Of a stretch of DNA of 64,000 bases, positions 4,460-46,880 are shown in pieces. Below the pieces are notes generated by a model. The model did no database searches. It saw nothing but the letters and a program-made list of their open reading frames with translations, and was not told where the DNA came from. The number at the start of each line of letters is the position of its first letter. Within the stretch, counting starts at the first letter, position 1. This DNA comes from Candidatus Woesearchaeota archaeon. Lineage in GTDB: Archaea; Nanobdellota; Nanobdellia; Woesearchaeales; SKIA01. The stretch lies in assembly GCA_046704725.1 (NCBI GenBank), contig JBJKRI010000005.1:160001-224000 (forward strand), written 5' to 3'. The translations under genes were made by a program, and so were the position numbers.

Positions 4460-4750
4460 TTAAATGGGTTTCTGCGCGTACGGACGGTCGGCGAAGAAAT
4501 CGAGCGTCCTGTACAACCGCCCGTCCGGATGGTCGTTCGCGTAGCCGCGCACCACACGATATAACGAGTGCGCGGCCAGGATACCAGTCCCGACCGCCAC
4601 CAGACCGACGAGATCCCGCGTGCTCTCCGGTCCGGGCGCGGTCGACCCGATCGCGGCACCCGCAGTCAACGCGGTGAGCTCGAGAGTGCGTCGGACTCCT
4701 CTCCAGTATGGGAGGTCTTTCAGGCGGGTCGCTGCGGGCTGTTTCTGCAC
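4460..4750 (-). CDS. Hypothetical membrane protein
   Basis: 96 aa with two hydrophobic segments; TATA-like tttaaaaa upstream. Confidence 0.5.
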   Translation of the reverse strand: MQKQPAATRLKDLPYWRGVRRTLELTALTAGAAIGSTAPGPESTRDLVGLVAVGTGILAAHSLYRVVRGYANDHPDGRLYRTLDFFADRPYAQKPI

Positions 4751-4785
4751 GGCCTGATAGGGTTTCGTGCCTTTTTAAATATGCG

Positions 4786-4890
4786 CTACAGGCAAGCCAC
4801 GCAGACGGCGACCCCGCCGAGCAAGGCGTACTCGTCGGCGCAGGTCACGCACATCTCGCGGCCGCAGCTCGCGCATTTTCCTTTTCGCAT
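4786..4890 (-). CDS. 34-aa Cys-rich microprotein (three CxxC pairs)
   Basis: MRKGKCASCGREMCVTCADEYALLGGVAVCVACL; GAAGGA upstream of ATG. Confidence 0.6.
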   Translation of the reverse strand: MRKGKCASCGREMCVTCADEYALLGGVAVCVACL

Positions 4891-4922
4891 GCGATCCTTC
4901 TGTGCAAGGGGGAAGAAGAGCC

Positions 4923-4982
4923 TTACGCGCGTGGATGTCCGGTGGACCACAAGAAGGGCACGATACGCTGGACGCTAGCCAT
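4923..4982 (-). pseudogene. Possible 5' remnant of a PhnB-like VOC gene
   Basis: MASVQRIVPFLW resembles the QKITPFLWF start of PhnB-type VOC proteins; ATG overlaps the end of the upstream VOC gene; stops after 19 codons. Confidence 0.35.
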
Positions 4983-5373
4983 GATTCTGCATCCTCGGGA
5001 AGGGTTGGAGCATGCTCAGGCGATTGCCCTCCGTGTCCTCGAAGCCGACGCTCAGGCCCACACCCGGAATCTCCGTCGGCTTTCCGCGCACCGTGCCGCC
5101 CGCTTTCTCGACGCGTTCCATCGCTTTTTTGATGTCCTCGACAGCGACGACCACCGCAGGAGCGTCGCCGGGACGCTTGGCATAGATGCCGCCGTTGATC
5201 GAGCCGGGCTTCTCGGGAAGCCCGTCCGCGCCAGGCTTGGAGGTCGTGACGATGACATAACTGCCCATGTCCTCGCCCAGCTGCTGGAGCCCCCACTCGA
5301 AGGCTTCACTGTAGAACGTCTTTGCGCGCGGGGTATCCTCCGCGGGAAGCTCGAAATGCACGACAGGGTCCAT
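4975..5373 (-). CDS. VOC family (glyoxalase/bleomycin resistance) protein
   Basis: MDPVVHFELPAEDTPRAKTFYSEAFEW, INGGI, VEKAGG, FEDTEGN. Confidence 0.92.
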   Translation of the reverse strand: MDPVVHFELPAEDTPRAKTFYSEAFEWGLQQLGEDMGSYVIVTTSKPGADGLPEKPGSINGGIYAKRPGDAPAVVVAVEDIKKAMERVEKAGGTVRGKPTEIPGVGLSVGFEDTEGNRLSMLQPFPRMQNHG

Positions 5374-5411
5374 CCGGGCGCTACGATGCGCGGGCATATA
5401 GGTGTTGTGCA

Positions 5412-5486
5412 TGACCCCGGAGGGATTTGAACCCTCGGCTTCCGGCTTAGAAGGCCAGCACTCTGTCCAGACTGAGTTACGGGGCC
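5412..5486 (-). tRNA. tRNA-Arg(TCT)
   Basis: Acceptor GGCCCCG/CGGGGTC, anticodon arm CTGGC-CTTCTAA-GCCGG, T-loop GGTTCAAATCC. Confidence 0.95.
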
Positions 5487-5550
5487 GAGGGCAGAAGACG
5501 GTTTGGAGTATAAAAAGGATGCACCGGCTGTGCAGCGATCTACCCACAGG

Positions 5551-5628
5551 TTTAAATAGAACTTCCAGCAAAGTGTCTGATATTCAGATAGAGTGACGGA
5601 AATGCAGCAGGATAATCTGAATTTCAGA
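5551..5628 (+). promoter_or_regulatory. TATA box plus two TCTGA-N3-TCAGA palindromes (candidate operator)
   Basis: tttaaata at 5551; perfect inverted repeats at 5576-5588 and 5616-5628, 40 bp apart, upstream of an AbrB-type regulator. Confidence 0.6.
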
Positions 5629-18397: not shown

Positions 18398-19210
18398 ATG
18401 GCGTTCCAGAAGTACGTGGCTGCACTCGGGGTCATCGCGCTATCCGCGGGTGCGACCGTCTCAACCGTGCCGCAGCCTGATAGAGCTAACAGAGAACCTG
18501 TCCCGTACACGGCTCCGGCCCCCGCCGATTCCGGCGGACCCGTTCCTGAGATGCGTACCGCGAGCGATTCCTGACAGGCAATCTACGTGAACATCCTCAC
18601 ACGGGGAACACGCGCACGTTGCGATTCCATGGATTTCTCCTTCCGGGGCGTCAGCATCCCGAACATCAAGGGACTCATCGTCGCGGAGGCGCGAGATGAC
18701 TGGGGACGGCCGACGTTGGTACTCGGGTCCGAAGACAAGAAGAATCTCGTGCTCTACGCCGACAAGGGCGCCGACGGGGTGCCCGATGCCGTCGTGGTCT
18801 TGCGCGGCGGCCCGCGCGCCATCGGTCCATATATCAGGGCGCAATGCGCGCTCTTGCGTGGGGAGTATCTCAACGTGCCTGAAGTGGACGTCCCGGAGTG
18901 GATGGGGAGATACAAGATTGTCTATGCGGACCTACACGGAATGACCACGCTCGAGAGGAATCTCTTCGGCGCCATGTTCCGCGTCGCCTACAATAGCCTC
19001 GTCCTCCCGTCAGTGGACACAAAGACCCTCTCCGGCAAACCATTAAAACAGCGCGCGCCATCCAAGGGCCGTGGAACAGGGATTCATCCTCTATCCGACA
19101 TACCAGGCCACGGCGGACGGCGCGACCGTACAGCTCACCGGCCGACTGGAGAACGGCGCGACCTTCCGCGCGGACATCAAGCAAATCCCGTACTTCTTCA
19201 TCGCCGCTAG
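18398..19210 (+). pseudogene. Secreted hypothetical protein interrupted by in-frame TGA at 18572-18574
   Basis: Signal-peptide ORF 18398-18574 and ORF 18587-19210 share one frame, separated only by a TGA. Confidence 0.45.
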
Positions 19211-24511: not shown

Positions 24512-25185
24512 CGCTCGCCGTCACCATCATCGTGCTACTCATCGGGGCGGTCTGCCTTCTCGTGGGGTTCTCGCAACTGCGCAAGCGGCGCGTGATACAG
24601 AACATCCCGACGAGCAAGATACGCAGTGCCGCGATGGGCCAGGTGGAGGTGAAGGGCACCGTCCACTCCAGCGAGACGTACACCGCACCGCTCAGCGGGG
24701 ATCCATGCGTATGGTATCGCCTGATCACCCGACAGTACTATCCCGACGGCAAGGGCGGAGGCACATGGAGGGAGACAGGACGCGAGGAGAAGGGTCGATA
24801 CCTGTATCTCCAGGACGAGACGGGAACTTGTCTGCTCGACCTCCAGGGCGCTGACATCGAGGTCGCCCTTCACAAGGACACGCAACCGCGCAACAACGGA
24901 CTGCAGATGGGCGTGATGGTGCATGTCGGCTCGAAGCGGATACGGAAAGAGGAGTACATCATCACAGAGGGAGAGCGGCTCTACACCCTCGCGAACGCCG
25001 CTCCCAACGAGGACGCCCAGACGAAAGAGGCCGCGCCGTTGCGGCTCGGGAAAGGGGCTGCGTTCTTCACGGTCAGCGACAAGTCGGAGAAGAAGCTCAC
25101 GCGGAACCTCCTCGTGTCGTCCCTCGTGTTCACGCTCATCGGAGCGGCACTGCTCATCTACGGCATAGTGACTGCGCTCGCATAA
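24508..25185 (+). CDS. GIDE/BAM domain membrane protein (no RING)
   Basis: TM, IQNIPTSKIRSAAMGQVEVKG, APLSGDPCVWY, YLQDETG, EYIITEGE, TM. Confidence 0.85.
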   Translation: MTLAVTIIVLLIGAVCLLVGFSQLRKRRVIQNIPTSKIRSAAMGQVEVKGTVHSSETYTAPLSGDPCVWYRLITRQYYPDGKGGGTWRETGREEKGRYLYLQDETGTCLLDLQGADIEVALHKDTQPRNNGLQMGVMVHVGSKRIRKEEYIITEGERLYTLANAAPNEDAQTKEAAPLRLGKGAAFFTVSDKSEKKLTRNLLVSSLVFTLIGAALLIYGIVTALA

Positions 25186-25269: not shown

Positions 25270-25932
25270 ATGGATGTGATGCACGCGACATATTTTGTCA
25301 TCGGGGGAGCGATCTTCGTGCTGGGAGGATTCACGCGTCTGCGCAAGCGACGGCTCATGCAGGATCTGCCTGTGAGTACGATACGCGGAGCGGCGATGGG
25401 CCTTGTTCAGATACGCGGCACGGCGCATGCGGACACGCAACAGAAGGCCCCGCTGAGCAAGAAGAAGTGCGTCTGGTACCGTGTGGTCATTGAGGAAACG
25501 AATATTATCACTGGTGACTGGAAGCAAGTGGATACTGAGGAAAAAGGCGGTCGCTTGTTCCTGCACGACGAGACAGGAATATGCGTGCTCGACCCGTCCG
25601 GATCGAAGCTGGACCTGCCGCTATCAGGGAGGACAGACACTTCGCAAGAAGAATCGGATCCGAATGATATCAGCGTGCATAAGGACACGCGGAAAAGCGA
25701 GTACATCATCACCGATGGCCAGGAACTCTATGTGCTGGCGAACGCAAGGCCCAACGAGGACGAACGCACAAAAGAGAAAGCGCCATTGCTGTTGGGGAAG
25801 GGATCGACCTATTTCACGGTGAGCGACAAGCCAGGATCCAAGTCAGAGCGCAGACTCCTCTATCTGTCGGCTCTGTCCACCGCATTCGGAGCGGCCATCA
25901 TGATATGGGGGCTTGTGAGTCTCTTGTCGTAG
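25270..25932 (+). CDS. GIDE/BAM domain membrane protein, tandem paralog
   Basis: AAMGLVQIRG, APLSKKKCVWY, FLHDETG, EYIITDG; aligns throughout with the upstream gene. Confidence 0.85.
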   Translation: MDVMHATYFVIGGAIFVLGGFTRLRKRRLMQDLPVSTIRGAAMGLVQIRGTAHADTQQKAPLSKKKCVWYRVVIEETNIITGDWKQVDTEEKGGRLFLHDETGICVLDPSGSKLDLPLSGRTDTSQEESDPNDISVHKDTRKSEYIITDGQELYVLANARPNEDERTKEKAPLLLGKGSTYFTVSDKPGSKSERRLLYLSALSTAFGAAIMIWGLVSLLS

Positions 25933-30436: not shown

Positions 30437-30471
30437 GGGCGGCTGACCACGTACCGGAATATAAAGCCTGC

Positions 30472-30495
30472 CACCGGACAAACGCGCGTAGCGTA
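30472..30495 (+). repeat. Copy of the CACYGGACAA-N3-CGCGTA motif
   Basis: caccggacaaacgcgcgtagcgta upstream of the RadA-like gene; matches 30941 and 31460. Confidence 0.6.
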
Positions 30496-30522
30496 CAAGA
30501 AACGTGAGGATATCCTCGCGCC

Positions 30523-30960
30523 GTGCTGGTCGGGGTGCTCGGGAAACGACGGGAGACGGATGCTGCCGTATTGCGGTACGCGTGCCGACACCCGCCCGCA
30601 TTGGTCATCGACTGCGGGAACGCGGCCGACCCCCACGCCCTGTTCCCCGCGGCGAGCGCCGAACAGCTCGAACGCGTGCGCAGCGTGCCCATCGACCTGC
30701 TCTACCAATTGCGCGACGCCGCACGCATCCTGCCGGAACTTGTGGGGGACGCGCGCCTTGTCGTCGTGACATCGCCGTACCACCTGTTCAACTACCACGA
30801 CGAAGAGGAGAACACCGCGGTCGAGCAGCACGCGTGGGAACTGCTCGCGAAGCACGGCAAGCGGCTGCACATCCTCGTCTCCGTGCCGGCAGGGACACGC
30901 CACGAGCGCTGGGCCCGACGCTACTGCGAGCGCATCCACGCACTGGACAAACGCGCGTAA
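30523..30960 (+). CDS. Inactivated RadA/RecA-like protein of the PolB2 module
   Basis: VIDCGNAADPH motif, no Walker A, RecA-like strand order; near PolB2. Confidence 0.75.
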   Translation: MLVGVLGKRRETDAAVLRYACRHPPALVIDCGNAADPHALFPAASAEQLERVRSVPIDLLYQLRDAARILPELVGDARLVVVTSPYHLFNYHDEEENTAVEQHAWELLAKHGKRLHILVSVPAGTRHERWARRYCERIHALDKRA

Positions 30961-30966
30961 GGCATA
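30941..30966 (+). repeat. Left copy of a 26-bp imperfect direct repeat flanking the TA pair
   Basis: cactggacaaACGcgcgtaaggcata; 23/26 identical to 31460-31485. Confidence 0.8.
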
Positions 30967-31011
30967 TGGGGGACGAAAGGATTTAAGACCTGCCGCAGCT
31001 TCTCAGCTTTG

Positions 31012-31212
31012 ATGGCAAAGGATATGCAAGACATCACACGCGAAATCGAGGCCCTTCGCAAGGATATAAAAGATATCCGCTCGCGGATGGTGGACGTGGA
31101 CATGCTCCTTTCCGAACGCGAGCGAAAACGCCTTGAAGAATCGCTCGATGAACTGCGTTCAGGCAAGGCCATCTCGCATGAGGAGCTCGTAAGAGAGCTC
31201 CATGACGCTTGA
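31012..31212 (+). CDS. Putative antitoxin (RelB-like)
   Basis: Small acidic helical protein ending LRSGKAISHEELVREL, overlapping the RelE start. Confidence 0.8.
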   Translation: MAKDMQDITREIEALRKDIKDIRSRMVDVDMLLSERERKRLEESLDELRSGKAISHEELVRELHDA

Positions 31213-31459
31213 ACGACGCTACTCCTCGCACGCGCAACATGCTATCAACAAGCTTTCTGAGCGGCTACGCGGGCGGATCCTCGCACGGATATCCGAACTG
31301 CAGGAAGAGCCGTTCCCACCTGACGCGAAACGCGTCGTGAACCGCAAGGAAAAAACGTTCCGCGTACGGGTCGGCGGGTACCGTATCCTCTACGTCGTGC
31401 TCGCCGAAGAAGGAATCCTGTTCATCTCCGACGTGGACAAGCGCGAACGCGTCTACTAG
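31202..31459 (+). CDS. relE: RelE/ParE family toxin
   Basis: RILARISELQEEPFP, FRVRVGGYRILY, DKRERVY. Confidence 0.92.
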   Translation: MTLERRYSSHAQHAINKLSERLRGRILARISELQEEPFPPDAKRVVNRKEKTFRVRVGGYRILYVVLAEEGILFISDVDKRERVY

Positions 31460-31485
31460 CACTGGACAAGGACGCGTAAGGCATA
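31460..31485 (+). repeat. Right copy of the 26-bp imperfect direct repeat
   Basis: cactggacaaGGAcgcgtaaggcata, immediately after the relE stop. Confidence 0.8.
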
Positions 31486-31510
31486 CGAATACGGGATGAC
31501 TAGCGATCGC

Positions 31511-31750
31511 ATGGGGCACACGGCATCCAGCCAGCGACAGGTCGTCGACCGGTTGCTGCGGGAATTGCACGATTACGGACGGGCGTTGCGGCCTGAGGAA
31601 CGGGTGTTGTACGAGCGCCTATTGGAGGCGCCGCTCCTGCACTTCGGCGCGACGAGCAACGCGTCGAGCCTGCACACCTGGGCGTTCCTGCTCTTGTCGG
31701 TGATGCTCGAGCAGGAGAAACGCATCGCCGCGCTCGAAGGGGCGCGTTAA
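31511..31750 (+). CDS. Small helical PolB2-associated protein
   Basis: MGHT..S.RQ...YGRALRPEER..YERLL...LLSVMLEQEKRI, the pattern of the PolB2-linked small protein family. Confidence 0.8.
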   Translation: MGHTASSQRQVVDRLLRELHDYGRALRPEERVLYERLLEAPLLHFGATSNASSLHTWAFLLLSVMLEQEKRIAALEGAR

Positions 31751-31886
31751 ACCTGTGTTATATGCTATACTCATCGTCCTGCGCATGCGAATCGAGACCG
31801 ATCCACTCACGGACTGGAACTGCGGTCAGGGGATGTCGCATGCGAATTGATTGTTCGATGCGCTGTGTTGATGAAATGCGAGCGGT

Positions 31887-32045
31887 TTAATCTCCAAGCT
31901 CGCGGTGTCCTATCGATTCTTGAACACCAAACAGAATTGCTGTAGCGAGCAATAGGAAGAACGCGATTGTTGGCGTGAAAGCAAAAAGCGCGAGGATAAT
32001 TCCGAGCGCAACCGCACCGCCAGTGACGAACATCCAAGACTTCAT
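31887..32045 (-). CDS. 52-aa membrane microprotein
   Basis: MKSWMFVTGGAVALGIILALFAFTPTIAFFLLLATAILFGVQESIGHRELGD; ATGA-coupled to the zinc-finger gene. Confidence 0.6.
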   Translation of the reverse strand: MKSWMFVTGGAVALGIILALFAFTPTIAFFLLLATAILFGVQESIGHRELGD

Positions 32046-32212
32046 TGTGCCGCCTCATGCAAGAGCAGGTGCTCCCGGAACGCTCCATAGTAACCGAACA
32101 CCTTATGGCAACCCGGGCACGTCAGTGGTTTGTCGTACACTCCATTTGTCACGCAGCGCGGACACGCCTTTCTATGGTGCGAATATCCACAGTTAGCGCA
32201 CGTGGTCGTCAT
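32042..32212 (-). CDS. 56-aa double zinc-finger microprotein (CxxC..CxxC plus C2H2)
   Basis: CANCG..CPRC, then CPGCHKVFGYYGAFREHLLLH; ATGA-coupled on both sides. Confidence 0.75.
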   Translation of the reverse strand: MTTTCANCGYSHHRKACPRCVTNGVYDKPLTCPGCHKVFGYYGAFREHLLLHEAAQ

Positions 32213-32310
32213 AGTATCGCCGTCGTGCATACACGGTGCGAGAGCAGGAATGCGCCGAGCAAGAGCCCGACCGCGAAGGTGATGATCAACCAGAGAAAGT
32301 CGATTTTCAT
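32209..32310 (-). CDS. 33-aa single-TM microprotein
   Basis: MKIDFLWLIITFAVGLLLGAFLLSHRVCTTAIL; TATA-like ttttata upstream. Confidence 0.55.
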   Translation of the reverse strand: MKIDFLWLIITFAVGLLLGAFLLSHRVCTTAIL

Positions 32311-32334
32311 GCGTCGCTTCAGGCTGAATTCATC

Positions 32335-32475
32335 GTATAAAACTGTTCACTACACATCTTTATAATGTCTTTTTTAATGAATATTCAAGAATATATATCT
32401 TTAATACGATTTAAAGAGTTTTTTATGTCTTATTTTATTGAATGATACTTCAATGAATCTTATGACAACAATCAA
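32335..32475. other. Strongly AT-rich non-coding tract with palindromes
   Basis: TGAATATTCA (32378-87), TCTTTAA-N6-TTAAAGA (32398-417), ATTGAA-N6-TTCAAT (32437-54), repeated ATGTCTT..T..TGAAT. Confidence 0.75.
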
Positions 32476-32572
32476 GCACTGAATGCGTGATTCGGATTCT
32501 GGAGGAAATTCAGAAGGCGCACTGGACGCGCACGGCCGCCAACCACATCAAGACGGGAACGCTCTTTTCGGG

Positions 32573-34732
32573 GTGCATCTCATCGACTGTTGGCGTGCGG
32601 AAGGAGGCGTCGCGCTCTGGCTCAAGGACGGCGGGAAGAACATACGCGTCATCCGGCCGGCTTCGTCGTTCTTCTTCGCCGACCCCGAAGCGGCGCCCAT
32701 CCTCGAACGATTGGGGATCCCCTTCGCGTGGGAGCGACGACCGACGCTGCTCGGAGGAAAAAAGGATGTCCTGCGCATCGAGACCGCGCCCGGGCGCTAC
32801 GAGCGCATCATCAGGATGATCGAGCGGCAGACGCGCTGGCGCGTCCCATTGTACGACGCGGACATCGCGCCCGAGGACCGCTATTTGTGGGAGAACGATC
32901 TTGTGCCGTGCGCGCCCGTGCGACAAGAAGGGGATCGTTTCTTTCTAGTAGAAGGAGGGCCGCCCGCGCTGTCGGTGCTCCATCTACGCATCAAGCCCGC
33001 ACGCGACATCCGAACCGAGCCCGACGCGCCTCTTGTCTCATTGTGGATCGACGATGAGCGCCACGACGGCGACGAGCAAGAGCTCTTGTCGCTGCTCGCA
33101 CACCATATCACTGAGCAGGACCCGGACGTCATCCGCATGGACTACGCCTTCAGCAGGCTGCCGTACCTCGAACGGCGTTGCAAGGAACAGGGCATCCATA
33201 TACCCTGGCACCGCTGGGACAAGACACCCATCACGACGAGGGGCGGGCGCACCTTCTACAGCTACGGACAAGTACAGTACCACGACTTCGCCACGCGACT
33301 GCACGGAAGGCTACTCGTGGACACGAGCACATCCGTGGGCAATCGCTGTGAGGCAGAAGGCATCGCCGAGCTGTGCACGCTGTCGGGCATGCGCTTCCAG
33401 CAACTGGCGAGCAGGAGCTTCGGAGCGGTCTTCCAGGTCGCGCTCGTACGGATGATGGTGCAGGAAGGGACGCTCGTGCCATACAAGGAGAAGCTCATCG
33501 AGCCGCCGATCGCACTGCTCGACGCCGTGGCCGCGGACAGGGCGGGGCACACCATCGACCCGAAGCCAGGATTCCACACGCACGTCGCGTCGCTCGATTT
33601 CACGAGCATGTACCCGCACCTCATGCGCGACAAGAACATCAGCGCGGAAGCCATCCTGCCAGGCACGGGAGAACACGTGCCGGGAATACCGGCGCGCATC
33701 CAAAAGAAGAAGGGACTGGTGGCGCGGACGATCGCGCCGTTCATCGAACGACGGCTCGCGCACAAACGGACGCCATCGGCGTATAGCGCCGCGCAATCGA
33801 ACGCGCTCAAGGCCGTGCTCGTATCGAGCAACGGCTACCTGCGCTTCCGGGAGTTCAAGCTCGGGCTGCCGCGGGCGCACATGGCGCTCTCCGCGTACGC
33901 GCGCGAGACACTGCTCTTGGCGCAACGCGTCGCCGAGGACTGGGGGTACGACGTGGTGCATGGAATCATCGACAGCCTGTGCGTGAAAAGGGACGGTATG
34001 ACTGCGGATGACGTACGATTGCTCGCCAGCGAGATCGGCGCGCGAACAGGCATCCCCCTCAAGAACGAGGGGGTCTATTGCTGGGTGGTGTTCTGCGCGA
34101 GCGTGAACGATCCCGCGCGGCCCGTGCCCACGCGCTACTTCGGCGTCTACACTGACGGACGCGTCAAGGCGCGCGGCATCGCATTGCGCAGGAAAGCGAC
34201 GCCTCCTCTTGTCAAGGACTTCCAAGAAGAAGCATTGCATCGCATGGCGCGCTGCAGGACGCACCAAGAGATCATCGCCATCATTCCCGAGCTCTTCCGC
34301 CTGCTGCGCACGACCATCAAACGCGTTCCGCTCATAAGAGCGCCACGGCTCGCCATCCGCCTGCGGCTCACCAAAGACGCGTACACACGGAACATCCCGC
34401 AACGAACTATCGTGGGACGGCTGCGCGACAAGGGAGTGACTATCCTGCCCGGGCAGGTGGCGCACTACGTGACGACGCGACGCGGGGATGTCCTTGCGGA
34501 GGATTACCGCGGGGGCGCGGATACGGAAGCGTACGCACGACTACTCGTCGCTTCGTTGCACGAACTGCTCGGCGCGTTCGGATACACGAGAGAGGATATC
34601 GCCGAGGCGTGCAAGCTCACGAGGCAGACCACGCTCGGAGCGTTCGCGACGACCCTCAGAACTGCGGCGATAGATGTGGAAGAATCTACCATAAGCCATA
34701 TAACCGCTCTTGCGCTTGACACGGGATGGTAA
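32573..34732 (+). CDS. polB2: PolB2/Dpo2-type family B DNA polymerase with degenerate motifs
   Basis: GRTFYSYGQV.Y, LDFTSMYP, motif C as HGIIDS instead of YGDTDS, no ExoI DIE, PVPTRYFG, KARGI..RR..TP; start uncertain (GTG 32573 or ATG 32483). Confidence 0.88.
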   Translation: MHLIDCWRAEGGVALWLKDGGKNIRVIRPASSFFFADPEAAPILERLGIPFAWERRPTLLGGKKDVLRIETAPGRYERIIRMIERQTRWRVPLYDADIAPEDRYLWENDLVPCAPVRQEGDRFFLVEGGPPALSVLHLRIKPARDIRTEPDAPLVSLWIDDERHDGDEQELLSLLAHHITEQDPDVIRMDYAFSRLPYLERRCKEQGIHIPWHRWDKTPITTRGGRTFYSYGQVQYHDFATRLHGRLLVDTSTSVGNRCEAEGIAELCTLSGMRFQQLASRSFGAVFQVALVRMMVQEGTLVPYKEKLIEPPIALLDAVAADRAGHTIDPKPGFHTHVASLDFTSMYPHLMRDKNISAEAILPGTGEHVPGIPARIQKKKGLVARTIAPFIERRLAHKRTPSAYSAAQSNALKAVLVSSNGYLRFREFKLGLPRAHMALSAYARETLLLAQRVAEDWGYDVVHGIIDSLCVKRDGMTADDVRLLASEIGARTGIPLKNEGVYCWVVFCASVNDPARPVPTRYFGVYTDGRVKARGIALRRKATPPLVKDFQEEALHRMARCRTHQEIIAIIPELFRLLRTTIKRVPLIRAPRLAIRLRLTKDAYTRNIPQRTIVGRLRDKGVTILPGQVAHYVTTRRGDVLAEDYRGGADTEAYARLLVASLHELLGAFGYTREDIAEACKLTRQTTLGAFATTLRTAAIDVEESTISHITALALDTGW

Positions 34733-40933: not shown

Positions 40934-42263
40934 GCAATGGATCCGCGACGACATGCGCCGGTTCATCGCCAGCCACCTGCCCGCGACAAAGAACACGAGC
41001 CCCGCGCGCCTCGAGGACCACGGGCAGATCACGCACAAGGACTATGACACGCTCATCCGGCGCCTGCTCACACAGGACCGGTACGCGGACGCGACGCAGG
41101 CGTTCAAGGAGCTGCGCGACACGTTCGAAGGGCTTCCGATGGATCATCAGGAAGAGCGCAAGCAGTACTACCGCATCCTCCAGCGCGCGTACAAGCAGAT
41201 CTACGACTACGTCGCGGACAAGCACAAGACCGCCCGCATCATGGCGCAGCTCTCGCAGGACGCGAACGTGTTCGACAAGAACGTCGCGCCCGTGGACCTG
41301 GACCAAGAGCGCACAGGGATGCCCATGCCGAGCATCGAGGACGCGATGGTCAGCCGCGGAAAGGAGAAAGCGGAAGAGCAGCACATCACCGTGACCGTGC
41401 AGCAGATGCCAGCACCGGCCGCACCGATCGCTGCGACCCCTCCCCCTGCGCCGGAGCATCACGCGGAACCAATCACGTCGACCTCTGTGCGCGAACCGCC
41501 GGTCCAGCACGCGCCGACGCCTCCCGTGCCAAAAGCGATCCCATCCCTTCCGCCGGCCTCCGACCTGCCGAAGCGTTCCCCACATCCTGTGCCGCAACCA
41601 CCGTCTCCCGCTCCGAAAGCGCAGGCGCAGAAACCATTGCCGTCGCACGTGCCGGACCTATCGGGGATGAAGCGCTCACACCACGAACTGCATATCCACG
41701 ACTCGCCCCCACCGCTACATCACGCGCTGCGAACCGAACCGCACGAGAAGAGCGTGCGCGACATCCTGCACGACGCCTTCCGGGAGCGCGAGAGCCACCC
41801 GAATCCCGCCTGGCATCCTCCGAAGCTGCACGTGCCACCACCGAAGAGGATCGAGCGCCCCGCGCACGAGGACCGACGCAGCATCCAGCTCCTCTCGGCC
41901 CAGACGCTCCTGCATGAGGCGCAGCGCTCGCTGCAAGGCAAGAACGCGAAGAGCGCGCAGGAGAAGCTCCTCGAAGCCCGCTTCGAGCTCGCGCGTGCGG
42001 GCGGGGACGACGCGATGCGCACGCATCTTGAACGGCTCGAGCGCGACGTCGCGCAGCAGATAGACAAGGAACGCCCGCGGGTGCGCGACGTGGAACTGTT
42101 CTCGAGCGCCTACCTGCAAGGAGTGCAGGCGATGGCGGCGGGAGACTACAGCAAGGCCGCGGAACTCTTCAGCCGCCGCATACAGCAGACACCGTTCGAC
42201 CGCGCGGCCCGGATACGGCTCGCAGAATGCATGGAGGTACTCAATGGCAAAGACGCTCGATAG
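40923..42263 (+). CDS. Proline-rich linker protein with TPR-like C-terminus
   Basis: Helical N-terminus, Pro/His-rich middle, YLQGVQAMAAGDYSKAAELF..P.DRAARIRL. Confidence 0.75.
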   Translation: MELEQWIRDDMRRFIASHLPATKNTSPARLEDHGQITHKDYDTLIRRLLTQDRYADATQAFKELRDTFEGLPMDHQEERKQYYRILQRAYKQIYDYVADKHKTARIMAQLSQDANVFDKNVAPVDLDQERTGMPMPSIEDAMVSRGKEKAEEQHITVTVQQMPAPAAPIAATPPPAPEHHAEPITSTSVREPPVQHAPTPPVPKAIPSLPPASDLPKRSPHPVPQPPSPAPKAQAQKPLPSHVPDLSGMKRSHHELHIHDSPPPLHHALRTEPHEKSVRDILHDAFRERESHPNPAWHPPKLHVPPPKRIERPAHEDRRSIQLLSAQTLLHEAQRSLQGKNAKSAQEKLLEARFELARAGGDDAMRTHLERLERDVAQQIDKERPRVRDVELFSSAYLQGVQAMAAGDYSKAAELFSRRIQQTPFDRAARIRLAECMEVLNGKDAR

Positions 42264-43935
42264 CTACACCGTCACCGTGAACGACATCATGGTGGACATC
42301 AGTATCCAGGAGGAGGAAGGAGAGCCGGTACCGCTCTACAGCCTGTCCATCACGAACATCAGCGAGACGACAAAGCTCATCCTCGAGAAGATCCGCCAGG
42401 AGTTCGTCAGCGAACTGGACACGAAGCAGATCGAGGAGGCGGAGGAGGAGCAGGGCGTCGACTACATCCGACAGCATTTCGAGGAGGAGATCAAGAAGCT
42501 CATCAAGAAGTACTTCCCCGAAGCGGACGAGCAGACCATGGACATGCTCGTCAACTACCTCGTCGAGGAGAACCTCGGCCTGGGGAAGATCGAGATCCTC
42601 CTGCACGACCCGAACCTCGAGGAGATCGTCATCAACAACGCGGAAGAACCGGTCTGGGTCTATCACCGCAAGCACGCATGGCTCAAGACGAATATCCGCA
42701 TCCTGTCGGAATCGCGTATCAGGCACTACGCGATGCAGATCGGCCGCGGAGTCGGAAAAGAGATCACGAGCCTCGCACCGCTCATGGACGCCCACCTGTC
42801 GAGCGGGGACCGTGTCAACGCGACCCTGTACCCCATCAGCAGCAAGGGAAACACCATCACCATCAGGAAGTTCGCCGACGACCCATGGACCATCACGAAG
42901 TTCATCAAGGAAGGGACCATCAGCTTCACCGCGGCAGCGCTCATCTGGCTGGCCATCCAGAACGAGCTGTCCATCCTCATCGCGGGCGGCACGGGCAGCG
43001 GAAAGACGAGCATGCTCAACGTGATTGCGAACTTCTTCCCGCCCAACCAGCGCATCCTCTCCATCGAGGACACGCGCGAGTTGACATTGCCGAACACCTT
43101 GCACTGGGTCCCGATGGAGACGCGCCTCGCTAATCCTGAAGGGAAAGGCGAGGTGACGATGCTCGACCTGCTCGTCAACAGCCTGCGTATGCGTCCCGAC
43201 CGCATCATCGTGGGAGAGATCAGACGGAAGCGTGAAGCGGAGGTATTGCTCGAGGCCATCCACACCGGACACTCCGTCTACGGCACCATCCACGCGAACG
43301 ACGCCGACGAGGTCGTCACACGATTGACGAACGACCCGATCGGCATCCCGAAACCCATGATCAGCAGCCTCGGGCTCGTCGTCGTGCAGAACAGGAACCG
43401 CCGGACGGGAAAGCGCCGCACCCTGCAGATCGCCGAGATACTTGGCACCGGGGACCCGAACGTGCTCCTGCAGCTCGACATCTTCAACGACCGACTCGTC
43501 AAGATCCGCGACTCGGAAGCGGTGATGGAGAAGCTGCGGCTGTACACCGGCATGTCCCCCGACCAGCTCTCCAAGGACCTCGAGGAGAAGGTACGCATCC
43601 TCAAGTGGATGCTGTTCGCCGGCAAGGAGGACGTCAATGAGATCGGCCTCATCATGAGCGACTACTATCGCGGCGAGCTCGACATCTCCCAGCGCGAGGC
43701 GGAGCTGCACGCGCGGCAACAGGCGCTCCCCTCCGAGCTCAAGAACCCTGCAGCCTCTCCTGGATCCGCTGCGTCCGGACCGCACAATAGCAAACCGGCG
43801 ATTCCTGCGCAGCACAACCCTGCAGCGTCCCCCAAGCCCGCCGCGTCCGGACCGCATAATCCACAACAGGCGCATCCCGCAGAGCACAAGCCTTCCGGCG
43901 CCTCCCCCGGGAAGCCGCCGGAGACAAAGAAGTGA
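42244..43935 (+). CDS. Type IV pilus assembly ATPase (CpaF/VirB11/FlaI family)
   Basis: ITIRKF, GGTGSGKT, SIEDTREL, LRMRPDRIIVGEIR, TGHSVYGTIHA. Confidence 0.95.
   Translation: MAKTLDSYTVTVNDIMVDISIQEEEGEPVPLYSLSITNISETTKLILEKIRQEFVSELDTKQIEEAEEEQGVDYIRQHFEEEIKKLIKKYFPEADEQTMDMLVNYLVEENLGLGKIEILLHDPNLEEIVINNAEEPVWVYHRKHAWLKTNIRILSESRIRHYAMQIGRGVGKEITSLAPLMDAHLSSGDRVNATLYPISSKGNTITIRKFADDPWTITKFIKEGTISFTAAALIWLAIQNELSILIAGGTGSGKTSMLNVIANFFPPNQRILSIEDTRELTLPNTLHWVPMETRLANPEGKGEVTMLDLLVNSLRMRPDRIIVGEIRRKREAEVLLEAIHTGHSVYGTIHANDADEVVTRLTNDPIGIPKPMISSLGLVVVQNRNRRTGKRRTLQIAEILGTGDPNVLLQLDIFNDRLVKIRDSEAVMEKLRLYTGMSPDQLSKDLEEKVRILKWMLFAGKEDVNEIGLIMSDYYRGELDISQREAELHARQQALPSELKNPAASPGSAASGPHNSKPAIPAQHNPAASPKPAASGPHNPQQAHPAEHKPSGASPGKPPETKK
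43744..43860 (+). repeat. Two imperfect 45-nt coding repeats with 72-nt period (NPAASPxxAASGPHN)
   Basis: 43744-43788 and 43816-43860 in the ATPase tail. Confidence 0.8.
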
Positions 43936-44738
43936 TGCTGAAGTACCTGACGAGCAAGTTCCCGCACCTCAAGCACCAGCTGCGCGTCGCGCACATGGCG
44001 ACCAAGCCCGAGGCGTTCATCAAGCGCGCATTGACGCGAGCGGCGCTCGGATCATTCCTGCTCAGCATCCTGCTCGCGATGCTCATCAGCAAGACGAACG
44101 GATCGTGGGGGCTGTGGGCGTTCGTGACCGTCGCGATGTTCCTCGGCGGCTTCTGGCTGGGGATGAAGAAACCGCTTATCCTCGCGCGCAAACGCGCCGT
44201 GGACATCGACCGGGAGGTGCTGTTCGCGGGACGCTTCCTGCTCATCAAACTGCACTCCGGAAAGCCTTTGGTGAACGCGCTCATCGAGGCGGCGCAGAGC
44301 TACGGGGTGGCGAGCAAGTACTTCGCCGAGATCGTGCGCGACATCGAGCTCGGGACGACCCTCGAGGACGCGATCGAGCGTTCGATGACTTACACGCCGA
44401 GCGACGCGTTCCGCAAGATCCTCTTCCAGATCCATAACGCGCTCCGGCTCGGCATCGATGTCACGCAGAGCCTGGAAGCGGTGCTCGAGGACATCACGAA
44501 GGAGCAACTCCTCGAGATCGAGCGCTACGGCAAGAAGCTGCCGAGCGCGACGCTGTTCTACATGCTCCTCGCGATCGTGTTCCCGAGCCTGGGGATGACG
44601 ATATTCACCGTCATCATGACCTTCACGAGCATCACCATGAACATGACAAGCTACATGGTCGTCGTCTTGTTCCTCGCCATCATCAACTTCTTGTTCATCA
44701 CCGTCTTCAGGGCGATACGGCCGAAGGTGAATATCTGA
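43935..44738 (+). CDS. Type II secretion F / TadB-TadC-like membrane platform protein
   Basis: SGKPLVNAL, F.EIV.DIELG..LEDAI, multiple TM. Confidence 0.88.
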   Translation: MLKYLTSKFPHLKHQLRVAHMATKPEAFIKRALTRAALGSFLLSILLAMLISKTNGSWGLWAFVTVAMFLGGFWLGMKKPLILARKRAVDIDREVLFAGRFLLIKLHSGKPLVNALIEAAQSYGVASKYFAEIVRDIELGTTLEDAIERSMTYTPSDAFRKILFQIHNALRLGIDVTQSLEAVLEDITKEQLLEIERYGKKLPSATLFYMLLAIVFPSLGMTIFTVIMTFTSITMNMTSYMVVVLFLAIINFLFITVFRAIRPKVNI

Positions 44739-45790
44739 TGGCGAAACTGCAGGAGTACGCGGAGAGCTTCGGGCGAAGCATCATCCCGAAACGGTTCCGC
44801 GACCCCTTGCAACAGTACCTGCTCAAGGCGGGCTTCGACCGCGTGCCGTACAGTGCGTTCGCAGGCATGTTCCTCGTGGCGGTCGTCATCACCTACATCC
44901 TGTTCTTGTTCGTGTACCCCTTACTGTCGAGCCTCGCGATATACCTGCTCGCCGTCGTTACGCTCGCGTTCTGGGTGCTGTGCCTGGGAGCGCTGGTCGC
45001 GCTGGCCATGTTCTTCATCTGGACGTACCTGAACCTCACCATCTACAACCGGACGAAGGAGATGGAGGACCGGCTGCCTGACTACCTATCGCTGGTCGTC
45101 ACCAACCTGCGCAGCGGGATGTCGTTCGACAAGAGCCTCTGGGCCGCCATCCGCCCGGAGTTCGGCGTGCTCGCGCGCGAAATCACCATGGTGAGCAAGA
45201 AGGTCATGACCGGCAACGACACCGCGGACGCGCTCACCGAATTCGCGAAGCGGTACGACAGCCCGATCCTTCGGCGCAGCATGAACCTCATCATCAGCGA
45301 GATCGAGTCGGGCGGAGAGATCGCTTCTGTGATCGAACGCGTCATCGAGAACCTGAGAAAGACGCACCAGCTCAAGAAGGAGATGGCCGCGTCCGTCGTG
45401 AGCTACATGATCTTCATCAGTATCATCACGATGGTGCTCTCGCCGATACTGTTCGCGCTGGCGAACACCATCCTCAAGGTGATCCTGGGTTTCGCGGTGC
45501 AGATAGCGCACTCCCAGAGCGGCTCGGTCAGCGTCGGCGGAGCCGCTTCGGTCATCAAGACATTCGGAAAGCTTTCCACCGTGGGGGACCAACTGTCCCG
45601 GGACTTCCACACCTTCAGCTACATCGCCTTGGGCACCGTCAGCATCTTCGCGGGGATGATCGTGAGCATCATCGAGAAAGGGGATATCCGTGGCGGGGTC
45701 AAGTACATCCCTGTCTTCGTGAGCATCACCATGGTGCTCTTCTACTTCGCGAGCAGGATACTCGCTGCGATGTTCGCCGGGCTGCTCTGA
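44738..45790 (+). CDS. Type II secretion F / TadC-like membrane platform protein
   Basis: EDRLPDYL...NLRSGM, PEFGVLAREI, ESGGEIA. Confidence 0.9.
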   Translation: MAKLQEYAESFGRSIIPKRFRDPLQQYLLKAGFDRVPYSAFAGMFLVAVVITYILFLFVYPLLSSLAIYLLAVVTLAFWVLCLGALVALAMFFIWTYLNLTIYNRTKEMEDRLPDYLSLVVTNLRSGMSFDKSLWAAIRPEFGVLAREITMVSKKVMTGNDTADALTEFAKRYDSPILRRSMNLIISEIESGGEIASVIERVIENLRKTHQLKKEMAASVVSYMIFISIITMVLSPILFALANTILKVILGFAVQIAHSQSGSVSVGGAASVIKTFGKLSTVGDQLSRDFHTFSYIALGTVSIFAGMIVSIIEKGDIRGGVKYIPVFVSITMVLFYFASRILAAMFAGLL

Positions 45791-45870
45791 GCCGCTCTGC
45801 GGTCCACGGGGGAAGCTTTATATACCGTACGCCCCAGAAAGAGCGTAACAGATAGGTGAGGTTTTTCCAT

Positions 45871-46368
45871 ATGATACAACGAAAGGCACAAGCGGCGCTT
45901 GAATTCCTCTCGACGTATGGCTTTGCGTTCCTGATTATCCTCGTCATGATCGGCGCGCTGGCGTACTTCGGCGTCCTCAACCCGCAGCGCTTCCTCCCGG
46001 AGCGATGCATGATGGGCCAGGAGTTCAACTGCGCGGACCACTACATCGGCGTCTCGGCGGGCAGCGGTAACATGCTGGTGAACGTCTCGCTCACGAACAA
46101 CCTGGGCACGACGATCACGAGCCTGAGCGGCACCGCGAACATGACCGGCGTCGGCGGAGGGACATGCACCTCGCCGTCCACGACGGTCGCGAGCGGCGCG
46201 ACGTTCCACATGAACTGCGCACTGACCCTCGATACCGGCGTGACTGCATGGCCTGCGGTCGGACAGAAGGCGAAGGTCGAGCTCCAGATAAACTATAAGG
46301 AGCAAGGCAAGTCCTACTTGCACCCGGTGCAAGGAGAGGTCTTCGCGACCATCCAGAGCGCTCCATAA
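45871..46368 (+). CDS. Type IV pilin (class III signal)
   Basis: RKA|QAALEFLSTYGFAFLIILVMIGALAYFGVLNP; paired Cys; own TATA ctttatata. Confidence 0.9.
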   Translation: MIQRKAQAALEFLSTYGFAFLIILVMIGALAYFGVLNPQRFLPERCMMGQEFNCADHYIGVSAGSGNMLVNVSLTNNLGTTITSLSGTANMTGVGGGTCTSPSTTVASGATFHMNCALTLDTGVTAWPAVGQKAKVELQINYKEQGKSYLHPVQGEVFATIQSAP

Positions 46369-46372
46369 GCGC

Positions 46373-46400
46373 TTTTTTCTTTTCTTTTCTCCTTTCCCAC
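46373..46400 (+). terminator. Oligo-T/pyrimidine tract after the pilin gene
   Basis: ttttttcttttcttttct directly after the stop codon. Confidence 0.55.
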
Positions 46401-46409
46401 TTTATTCCC

Positions 46410-46880
46410 ATGGCACGACGCGGGCAAGCGGCACTCGAATACCTGTTCACCTACGGGTGGGCGTTCCTCGCCGTACTCGTCACTATCGGCGTGCTCGCGT
46501 ACTTCGGTGTGTTCAACGTGAGCGCGTTGCAGAGCAACGATTGCAGCTTCATCCCTGGCATCGTGTGCTCGGACTACACCATCACCCCGACGGGCGGCAA
46601 CCTCTTGCGGTTGGACCTGCGCAACACGTTCGGCGTGCCGTTGACCGTCACGGATGCTTATGCGAACAGCACGCCGGCGAACATGGGGTGCACCCCCGAC
46701 GGCGCGACGTTCCCCACGACCTGGGACGTCCAGGGACCGCTGAATATCAGCTGCGCCTTCCCCAGCGGGACCTACCATTCAGGCACGCGCTATGACTTCG
46801 TCGTGACCGTGAAAGCGACCCAGCAGGGCCAGACGTACCTGCACAACCTCACCGGGACGGTCTCCGCGTCCGCGCAGTGA
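46410..46880 (+). CDS. Type IV pilin paralog (class III signal)
   Basis: RRG|QAALEYLFTYGWAFLAVLVTIGVLAYFGV. Confidence 0.9.
   Translation: MARRGQAALEYLFTYGWAFLAVLVTIGVLAYFGVFNVSALQSNDCSFIPGIVCSDYTITPTGGNLLRLDLRNTFGVPLTVTDAYANSTPANMGCTPDGATFPTTWDVQGPLNISCAFPSGTYHSGTRYDFVVTVKATQQGQTYLHNLTGTVSASAQ

Follow-up and report, generated by a model that had tools for sequence, protein, structure and literature searches.

In the Sulfolobales, the hexanucleotide ANTTTC, an element termed DDRE, is bound by Orc1-2 at 23-55 nucleotides (nt) before the ATG of damage genes including dpo2, with activation as the outcome (PMC6061795). The proteins iRadA, PPB2, and PolB2 make up what section 3.1 of PMC11791011 calls the "PolB2 mutasome", whose operon is usually compact and, in the Sulfolobales, damage-induced; PPB2 is described in the same source as a small three-helix protein encoded between iRadA and PolB2. 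Outside the Sulfolobales, the archaeal DNA-damage response has been without a defined cis-element or regulator. Here we describe a 22-nt bipartite box found before the genes of a PolB2 mutasome in a 64,000-nt stretch of DNA from Candidatus Woesearchaeota archaeon (assembly GCA_046704725.1, contig JBJKRI010000005.1, forward-strand positions 160,001 to 224,000), which as a whole is referred to below as the window. The box is a conserved promoter element.

The box resembles the DDRE of the Sulfolobales in being a short asymmetric promoter element before dpo2/PolB2 genes, lying at about -52 to -31 before iRadA, PPB2, and PolB2. It differs in its unrelated sequence, in its two-part structure of 22 nt joined directly to the TATA box, and in its occurrence in lineages of the Nanoarchaeota/Woesearchaeota type. 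The genes behind the box, with a recombinase, an error-prone polymerase complex, a DinD-like Bro-N protein, and toxin-antitoxin modules, resemble in kind those of the LexA-controlled SOS regulon; the SOS box, however, is palindromic and serves a dimeric repressor as its operator, whereas the present box is asymmetric and lies upstream of TATA. Compared with the operon of PMC11791011, the window has the same genes, iRadA, PPB2, and PolB2, but other DNA breaks the operon at two points, and a separate box or half-site precedes each gene. In actinobacteria, the LexA-independent PafBC system runs a damage regulon through a promoter-embedded motif, its activator reprogramming the basal machinery (PMC11804915). 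The motif there likewise replaces or adjoins a core promoter element, but PafBC is a bacterial system built around a sigma factor. Finally, CACTGGA is shared with TTCCACTGGA(A/G), the core of the Pyrococcus origin recognition box (ORB) and mini-ORB (PMC1904270). Unlike an ORB, the box has neither the TTCC-N5-GGAA dyad nor a G-rich extension, and it stands at promoters, oriented with a gene, not flanking an unwinding element beside orc1.

We favor, with a little better than even confidence, the view that the box is a bipartite cis-regulatory promoter element of a regulon shared among Nanoarchaeota/Woesearchaeota-type archaea, with DNA damage or a related stress as the most likely signal.

The box and the genes behind it in the window

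The window has a GC content of about 60% and is archaeal, encoding ABCE1/RLI, a TrmB-type regulator, two family B polymerases, FttA, a proteasome subunit, and ribosomal protein S3Ae. An earlier sequence-only reading had listed six strings from it as copies of a recurring ORB-like box, CACYGGAC, upstream of DNA-damage-tolerance genes, and all six were found where that reading had placed them. Taken alone, the bare 8-mer is at background, with seven matches in the window compared to a shuffle mean of 5.53, and at least seven in 36 of 100 shuffles. What is real is the longer element of which it forms the 5' half, the 22-nt bipartite box CACYGGACAA-N3-CGCGTARSG common to sites S1, S2, and S3. The sites considered were the following.

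30472..30493, plus strand: box S1, CACCGGACAA-ACG-CGCGTAGCG
30941..30962, plus strand: box S2, CACTGGACAA-ACG-CGCGTAAGG
31460..31481, plus strand: box S3, CACTGGACAA-GGA-CGCGTAAGG
4921..4944, minus strand: box S4, CACCGGACAT-CCACG-CGCGTAAGG, with a spacer of 5 nt versus 3 nt in S1-S3
32520..32527, plus strand: half-site CACTGGAC, the first 8 nt of the box only
19011..19024, plus strand: site before a Pol II-type PolB gene in the earlier reading, rejected as a member

S1-S3 are copies of a 27-nt direct repeat (repeat family D18; starts at 30471, 30940, and 31459; 78, 100, and 89% identity), and no further 27-mer in the whole window came below eight mismatches to these copies. A 26-nt pattern allowing up to three mismatches matched twice in the window, and none of 100 shuffles gave any match. 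S2 and S3 are identical at 24 of 27 positions, with all three differences inside the N3 spacer; by our own arithmetic, a neutral duplicate would show this by chance 1 time in 2925. That the differences are confined to the spacer argues for selection on both half-sites, and against a decaying duplication.

Searching the window with a variable spacer brought up S4 as the fourth full box. With a gapless nhmmer profile, S4 scored E = 0.42 and the 32520 half-site E = 28, S4 being under-scored because its spacer is 2 nt longer; the same profile found no copies in the window and the loci of the species scan (below) besides those already known. The second half following the 32520 half-site (GCACGGCCGCC) is similar to that of a variant box in another genome (L007:114, below). 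The sequence-only reading had also counted a Pol II-like gene (19071) as a member, which did not hold: its site at 19011 has one mismatch in the 9-mer core, lacks the second half, stands 60 nt before the start codon, and was missed by the profile search, and about 1.4 such one-mismatch matches are expected by chance in the searched space by our own arithmetic. No tRNA or known RNA family overlaps the repeats, the window's three tRNAs lying elsewhere.

The spacing to start codons reported in the sequence-only reading was confirmed. Four of the seven exact 8-mer matches lie 51-54 nt upstream of a same-strand start codon and a fifth lies at 71 nt; positions at the former distance make up 0.38% of the window, giving a binomial P of 7.4e-9 for a range that was picked after the fact and with the microprotein reading frame called because of the box. 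The distance from the end of the box to the start codon is 29 nt for S1 (GTG 30523) and S3 (ATG 31511) and 30 nt for S4 (ATG 4890), and for PolB2 (GTG 32573) the 32520 half-site stands 53 nt ahead of the start codon. The box spans about -52 to -31 relative to the start codon, and the genes behind it have no leader or a very short one. Half-site 2 coincides with the position of the TFB-recognition element (BRE) and the TATA position follows directly, which bears out the placement proposed earlier.

The octamers at the TATA position after the window boxes are weak (TACAAGAA, CATATGGG, CATACGAA, and CTCTTCTT), that of S1 occupying 30494-30501, and neighboring window promoters that have no box possess good TATA boxes (TTTATATT, ATTTAAGA, and CATTAAAA). 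Such poor octamers behind the boxes of a GC-rich genome fit activator-dependent promoters. S2, the match at 71 nt, has a better second TATA box, ATTTAAGA, at 30981-30988, 23 nt before ATG 31012. A scan of the window for bacterial-type promoters and terminators was uninformative.

The genes behind these sites, and the DNA inserted among them, are listed here with lengths in amino acids (aa) and with ORF standing for open reading frame.

30523..30960, plus strand: iRadA, 145 aa, behind S1; RecA/Rad51 fold, no N-terminal domain, no canonical Walker A
31012..31212, plus strand: gene in the antitoxin position, 66 aa, behind S2; antitoxin role by position only
31202..31459, plus strand: RelE/ParE toxin, 85 aa (ParE_toxin PF05016 at 1.1e-7; phrog_1213, RelE-like, at 1.3e-11)
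31511..31750, plus strand: PPB2, 79 aa, behind S3; small PolB2 partner, named after PMC11791011
31751..32480, no strand assigned: lower-GC insert between PPB2 and PolB2, with three tiny overlapping minus-strand ORFs and 170 bp of 27% GC (32311-32480)
31887-32045, 32042-32230, and 32209-32310, minus strand: the insert ORFs, encoding in turn a 52-aa membrane-like protein, a 62-aa Cys-rich protein with a weak zf-C2H2 match, and a 33-aa membrane-like protein
32573..34732, plus strand: PolB2, 719 aa, behind the 32520 half-site; IID replaces DxD
4786..4890, minus strand: Cys-rich microprotein, 34 aa with three CxxC pairs, behind S4; called from reading frame and location behind the box

The labels RadA-like, small partner, and PolB2 given in the sequence-only reading were right, and homology to a compact mutasome operon in another genome (locus L022), protein fold, and the IID motif identify the three as iRadA, a probable PPB2, and PolB2. 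The iRadA product is 31% identical to the box-led gene of L022. Its structural model (pLDDT 96.9) had RAD51 paralogs, RAD51, RadA, and RecA as best fold matches in the PDB, with a probability of 1.00, and its N-terminus reads GVLGKRR, hence no GK(S/T); we assigned it as iRadA because of this fold match together with the lack of a canonical Walker A. The relationship was visible in the fold comparison only: the iRadA sequence profile gave no RadA match against the PDB, a word-based protein search returned the query itself and nothing else, and Pfam recognized no family in 48 aligned relatives, except for one weak KaiC match. By exhaustive profile search, the iRadA family has 118 representatives. 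About a fifth of them are some 80 residues longer (P0016, P0017, P0022, P0034, and others; 212-247 aa), which is compatible with the iRadA-PPB2 fusions reported in PMC11791011.

The predicted PPB2 shows 53% identity across all 79 residues to the L022 gene product encoded between iRadA and PolB2, and both predicted proteins begin with MGHT. PolB2 matched NF004416 at 1.7e-89, below the curated cut-off, and is 44% identical to the L022 PolB in an alignment that runs from residue 2 and supports GTG 32573 as the start. In its polymerase motif, HGIIDS, the first Asp of DxD is replaced; IID is reported for the S. islandicus PolB2 and is a hallmark of PolB2 (PMC11791011, section 3.2). The Cys-rich microprotein has no Pfam family. 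Just upstream of S4, 4975-5571 on the minus strand reads in translation as a glyoxalase/VOC-like protein, its only family-library match being weak (KbpA, 3e-4), and the long plus-strand ORF at 4708-5430 overlaps tRNA-Arg and is probably spurious.

In L022 the operon is compact, the PPB2 start lying inside the end of iRadA and PPB2 running into PolB2. The window keeps the order and strand of the three genes, with 550 nt and 822 nt of other DNA between them. Homology of the window iRadA stops at YCERI, its last seven codons and stop being encoded by S2, and the block formed by S2, the toxin-antitoxin pair, and the S3 promoter is placed precisely in front of the conserved MGHT start of PPB2. The insert at 31751-32480 looks like foreign DNA; it contains two copies of CGCATGCGAAT, at 31782 and 31838. 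In the window, the iRadA-PPB2-PolB2 operon, normally compact, is split by a toxin-antitoxin cassette and a low-GC insert, and a box or half-site stands at the canonical distance before all three mutasome genes, an arrangement that would keep the three partners under one control.

The box in other genomes

A single scan with the pattern CACYGGACAANNNCGCGTARSG, covering one genome for each of 185,579 species and counting strict matches only, returned 30 loci, 18 archaeal by record title and 12 bacterial. The archaeal loci comprise five from Nanobdellota/Nanoarchaeota, four from Woesearchaeota, eight titled "uncultured Methanosarcinales", and one titled Methanobacteriota. This archaeal share is far above chance, since by our own estimate these small genomes make up far less than 1% of the bases scanned.

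The 8 nt following the pattern, which the search left unconstrained, contain at least six A/T in 17 of the 18 archaeal matches versus 2 of the 12 bacterial ones. Behind the archaeal boxes they give the TATA consensus YWTWTAAA, seen in genomes of 30-60% GC, with 0.6-1.4 bits at each position compared to less than 0.35 in the flanks. Eleven of the 12 bacterial matches fall inside stop-free frames of at least 199 aa, and because they lie within long open frames, mostly with no A/T-rich octamer, the bacterial matches look like chance. The locus titled Methanobacteriota (L014) has no TATA after the pattern and was treated as a chance match.

A start codon follows the box at 29-31 nt in 9 of the 14 loci that could be judged, and the others have it at 34-43 nt, apart from L028 (114-147 nt) and L001 (none). 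Three loci run off their contigs, and one of these, L017, nonetheless has an ATG at 30 nt. Two genomes carry a pair of boxes (L015/L020 and L027/L030) with nothing in common beyond the box and TATA, so the box is not part of a longer mobile repeat. Queried with box plus TATA, the phage collection gave chance-level matches only (E = 8) and the plasmid collection gave none.

CCACAMCC (or GACACACC) stands directly 5' of the box in 5 of 20 aligned sites (L003, L004, L007, L015, and L020; 8-10 nt before the box) and may be a third, optional element. The boxes sit tight against preceding genes: the upstream gene in L018 ends 1 nt short of the box, and the TAR of CGCGTAR doubles as the stop codon of the preceding gene at the window's S2 (iRadA) and in L004, where that gene encodes a RibD_C protein.

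Half-site 1 also recurs apart from the full box. Eight extra copies of CACTGGACA were found in the archaeal loci. Six of these precede the main box by no more than about 95 nt (one each in L017, L020, L021, and L030, two in L024). Those in L030, L020, and L017 are 43-59 nt upstream; L024 and L021 have overlapping tandem half-sites 7-9 nt upstream, and L024 has in addition an inverted copy about 90 nt upstream. Half-sites head other promoters at L002:3296, before a second nucleotidyltransferase/HEPN-like pair, and at L007:114, where the variant box reads as follows.

L007:114-145: variant box CACTGGACAG-GCA-CGGCCGGCG, with a GC-rich second half, then GCATAAAA; heads a MazE/AbrB-PIN pair

The lone and extra copies indicate that half-site 1 is a repeated, self-standing unit. 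CGCGTAR occurs 12 times elsewhere in the loci, only once followed by TATA, and is no general promoter feature there.

The genes behind the box in these genomes are as follows.

L022: tRNA gene, box 7 nt after the tRNA, then iRadA, PPB2, and PolB2, tightly packed
L028: box, 78-aa protein, RadA (2.4e-138), TRAM protein; RPA-like gene upstream
L003: box, Bro-N protein, Hef nuclease/helicase (7.2e-137)
L004: box, RadC, tRNA-splicing endonuclease
L013, L030, and probably L017: box, HicB-HicA
L007: box, PIN gene, then a 102-aa gene; separate MazE-PIN pair
L002: box, wHTH-nucleotidyltransferase pair; two such pairs
L021: box, Bro-N protein
L027: box, LAGLIDADG protein
L015 and L018: box, zinc-ribbon proteins of 50-54 aa; in L018, gyrA two genes later
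L020: box, small proteins with no assigned function

Within L002 (2121-4020), the nucleotidyltransferase pairs are in tandem, one partner being HEPN-like and each pair having a box, with an ORF6N/KilA-N-type gene divergent beside them.

Repair or recombination operons stand behind the box in 4 of the 14 judged loci outside the window, an outcome with a chance of about 2e-3 if some 3% of genes are taken to be repair genes. The box is present upstream of radA (L028) and conserved in other metagenome-assembled genomes (MAGs), with TATA at 17 archaeal loci. The description of the controlled genes in the sequence-only reading, as serving DNA-damage tolerance, holds for radA, hef, and the second PolB2 operon; it proved too narrow for a set that includes many toxin-antitoxin and small genes.

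Regulon and rival explanations

The anatomy of the box, its conservation, its geometry, and the identities of the genes are established. A shared and previously undescribed regulon is a fair and well-supported reading of these data, because in other genomes radA, hef, and a second PolB2 operon are likewise headed by the box. A role in the DNA-damage response is plausible, considering the gene content together with the published damage induction of PolB2 operons. In such a regulon, half-site 1, CACYGGACA(A) at about -52 to -43, would be read by a sequence-specific factor. The position is the usual binding place of archaeal activators. After a free 3-nt spacer comes half-site 2, CGCGTARSG at about -39 to -31, in the BRE position with the TATA box directly 3', and the factor at half-site 1 would govern the loading of TBP and TFB at this adjoining half-site and TATA, presumably by activation and in response to damage. 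The predicted members are the PolB2 mutasome, radA, hef, radC, Bro-N proteins, many type II toxin-antitoxin pairs, and zinc-ribbon microproteins.

Several observations weigh against this reading. The conservation of the half-sites among the matches is forced, because the search pattern was drawn from this window, and the scanned collection did not contain the source genome; the title "Methanosarcinales" of eight loci is unconfirmed. The geometry has exceptions: the first plausible ATG behind the L028 box is far from the expected 30 nt, no ORF follows the box in L001, and S2 in the window depends on its second TATA box to reach its gene. A role for RadC in repair is doubtful. Toxin-antitoxin, Bro-N, LAGLIDADG, and small genes of no assigned function are at least as numerous under the box as repair genes, a mix that would suit a promoter of mobilome or accessory genes equally well.

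It is on this last ground that a promoter class with no damage signal, which we regard as possible though doubtful, has to be considered: the box would be an extended BRE for an alternative TFB, or a portable strong promoter of accessory genes, and the repair genes would stand behind it by chance or because of growth phase or another stress. Half-site 2 is exactly at the BRE position, toxin-antitoxin and mobilome-type genes outnumber every other class behind the box, and a box-bearing toxin-antitoxin cassette was inserted into the window operon. Yet core, vertically inherited repair operons carry the box across lineages, namely the PolB2 mutasome in two genomes whose proteins are 31-53% identical, radA, and hef, and a constitutively expressed error-prone polymerase seems unlikely. 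An extended BRE would also leave unexplained why half-site 1 occurs apart from half-site 2 and in extra copies, and CGCGTAR was not found at other promoters of the loci.

The assignment made in the sequence-only reading, an ORB-derived site for an Orc1/Cdc6 paralog that activates a regulon as Orc1-2 does in the Sulfolobales, is not supported by the sequence beyond the shared CACTGGA; we consider it unlikely and keep it as a lead. The motif CACTGGA is part of the Pyrococcus core (PMC1904270), the site is asymmetric with extra direct copies, as for a monomeric, cooperative binder, archaeal polB2 neighborhoods are reported in section 3.1 of PMC11791011 to be enriched in orc1/cdc6, and dpo2 is under Orc1-2 control in S. 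islandicus (PMC6061795). Against this, the TTCC and GAA that are invariant in Pyrococcus ORBs (PMC1904270) are absent, the box having GGAC and not GGAA, and the positions -4 to -1 of the box hold no information (less than 0.35 bit). In the 70 nt before each of the five window starts, ANTTTC has no forward match, and the one reverse match, at -68, is outside the published range. Pfam revealed no Orc1/Cdc6 gene among the 78 window ORFs and 83 locus ORFs scanned. Nor are the boxes paired around an AT-rich unwinding element; all are oriented with the downstream gene, and only one half-site is beside an AT-rich stretch, 32311-32480.

A role of the repeats as recombination or insertion sites, marking cassette boundaries as in integrons or tandem integrations, is very unlikely. 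S2 and S3 do bracket the toxin-antitoxin cassette with near-identical copies, and boxes abut or overlap the preceding stop codon in the window, L004, and L018, with the L022 box close behind a tRNA. In integrons, attC sites are imperfect inverted repeats with RYYYAAC and GTTRRRY cores at the cassette ends. Neither inverted repeats nor such cores were found in the 27-nt repeat or its flanks, and no integrase was found beside any site. The distance of the box to TATA and start codons is fixed in 17 loci, most loci have a single box, and the differences between S2 and S3 are in the spacer only. Chance matching of a short GC-rich word can be set aside as practically negligible overall, for while the 8-mer is at window background and 19011 is compatible with chance, the 27-nt repeat, the archaeal scan matches, the conserved TATA, and the start-codon geometry refute it for S1-S4; chance is possible for the 32520 half-site and likely for 19011.

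Returning to the regulon, we also put forward, more tentatively than the element itself, that DPANN archaea of the Nanoarchaeota/Woesearchaeota type may run an SOS-like program in which one regulator, bound at CACTGGACA beside a special BRE, would respond to damage by expressing the PolB2 mutasome together with RadA, Hef, and numerous toxin-antitoxin modules and zinc microproteins. Under such a program, the mutasome operon would tolerate an insertion only where each resulting fragment regains a box. If true, this would be the first archaeal damage regulon with a defined cis-element outside the Sulfolobales, and one whose operator logic is unrelated to LexA and to the Orc1-2 element. We found no published description of the box in the literature searched: full-text queries with the box, its reverse complement, and the 8-mer core returned primers and unrelated papers only, and nothing relevant was found on a promoter motif or damage regulon of DPANN or Woesearchaeota. 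The word "promoter" occurs zero times in a term search of the main text of PMC11791011, and the abstract and sections 3.1 and 3.2 of that paper mention no promoter element.

Because these archaea are mostly uncultured, their regulation can be read from sequence only, and a 22-nt box that ties together a mutagenic polymerase complex, a recombinase, and a fork-repair nuclease allows regulon members to be predicted in any MAG. It could serve as bait for the regulator and opens the question of an archaeal SOS-like switch to testing in a second lineage that is very distant. The gene list further suggests that this circuit also takes in many of the toxin-antitoxin modules in these genomes.

Other features of the window

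An archaeal type IV pilus-like locus was found at 42244-46880, with a T2SSE ATPase gene and two T2SSF genes. Two paralogous pilin-like N-termini, 74% identical, are encoded at 45889-45981 and 46425-46517, and the 3' end of the ATPase gene has a 72-nt tandem duplication (43744-43887). A 141-nt direct repeat of 72% identity (24943-25083 and 25690-25830) joins a GIDE-like gene and the next ORF, which are probably paralogous membrane proteins encoded behind LemA.

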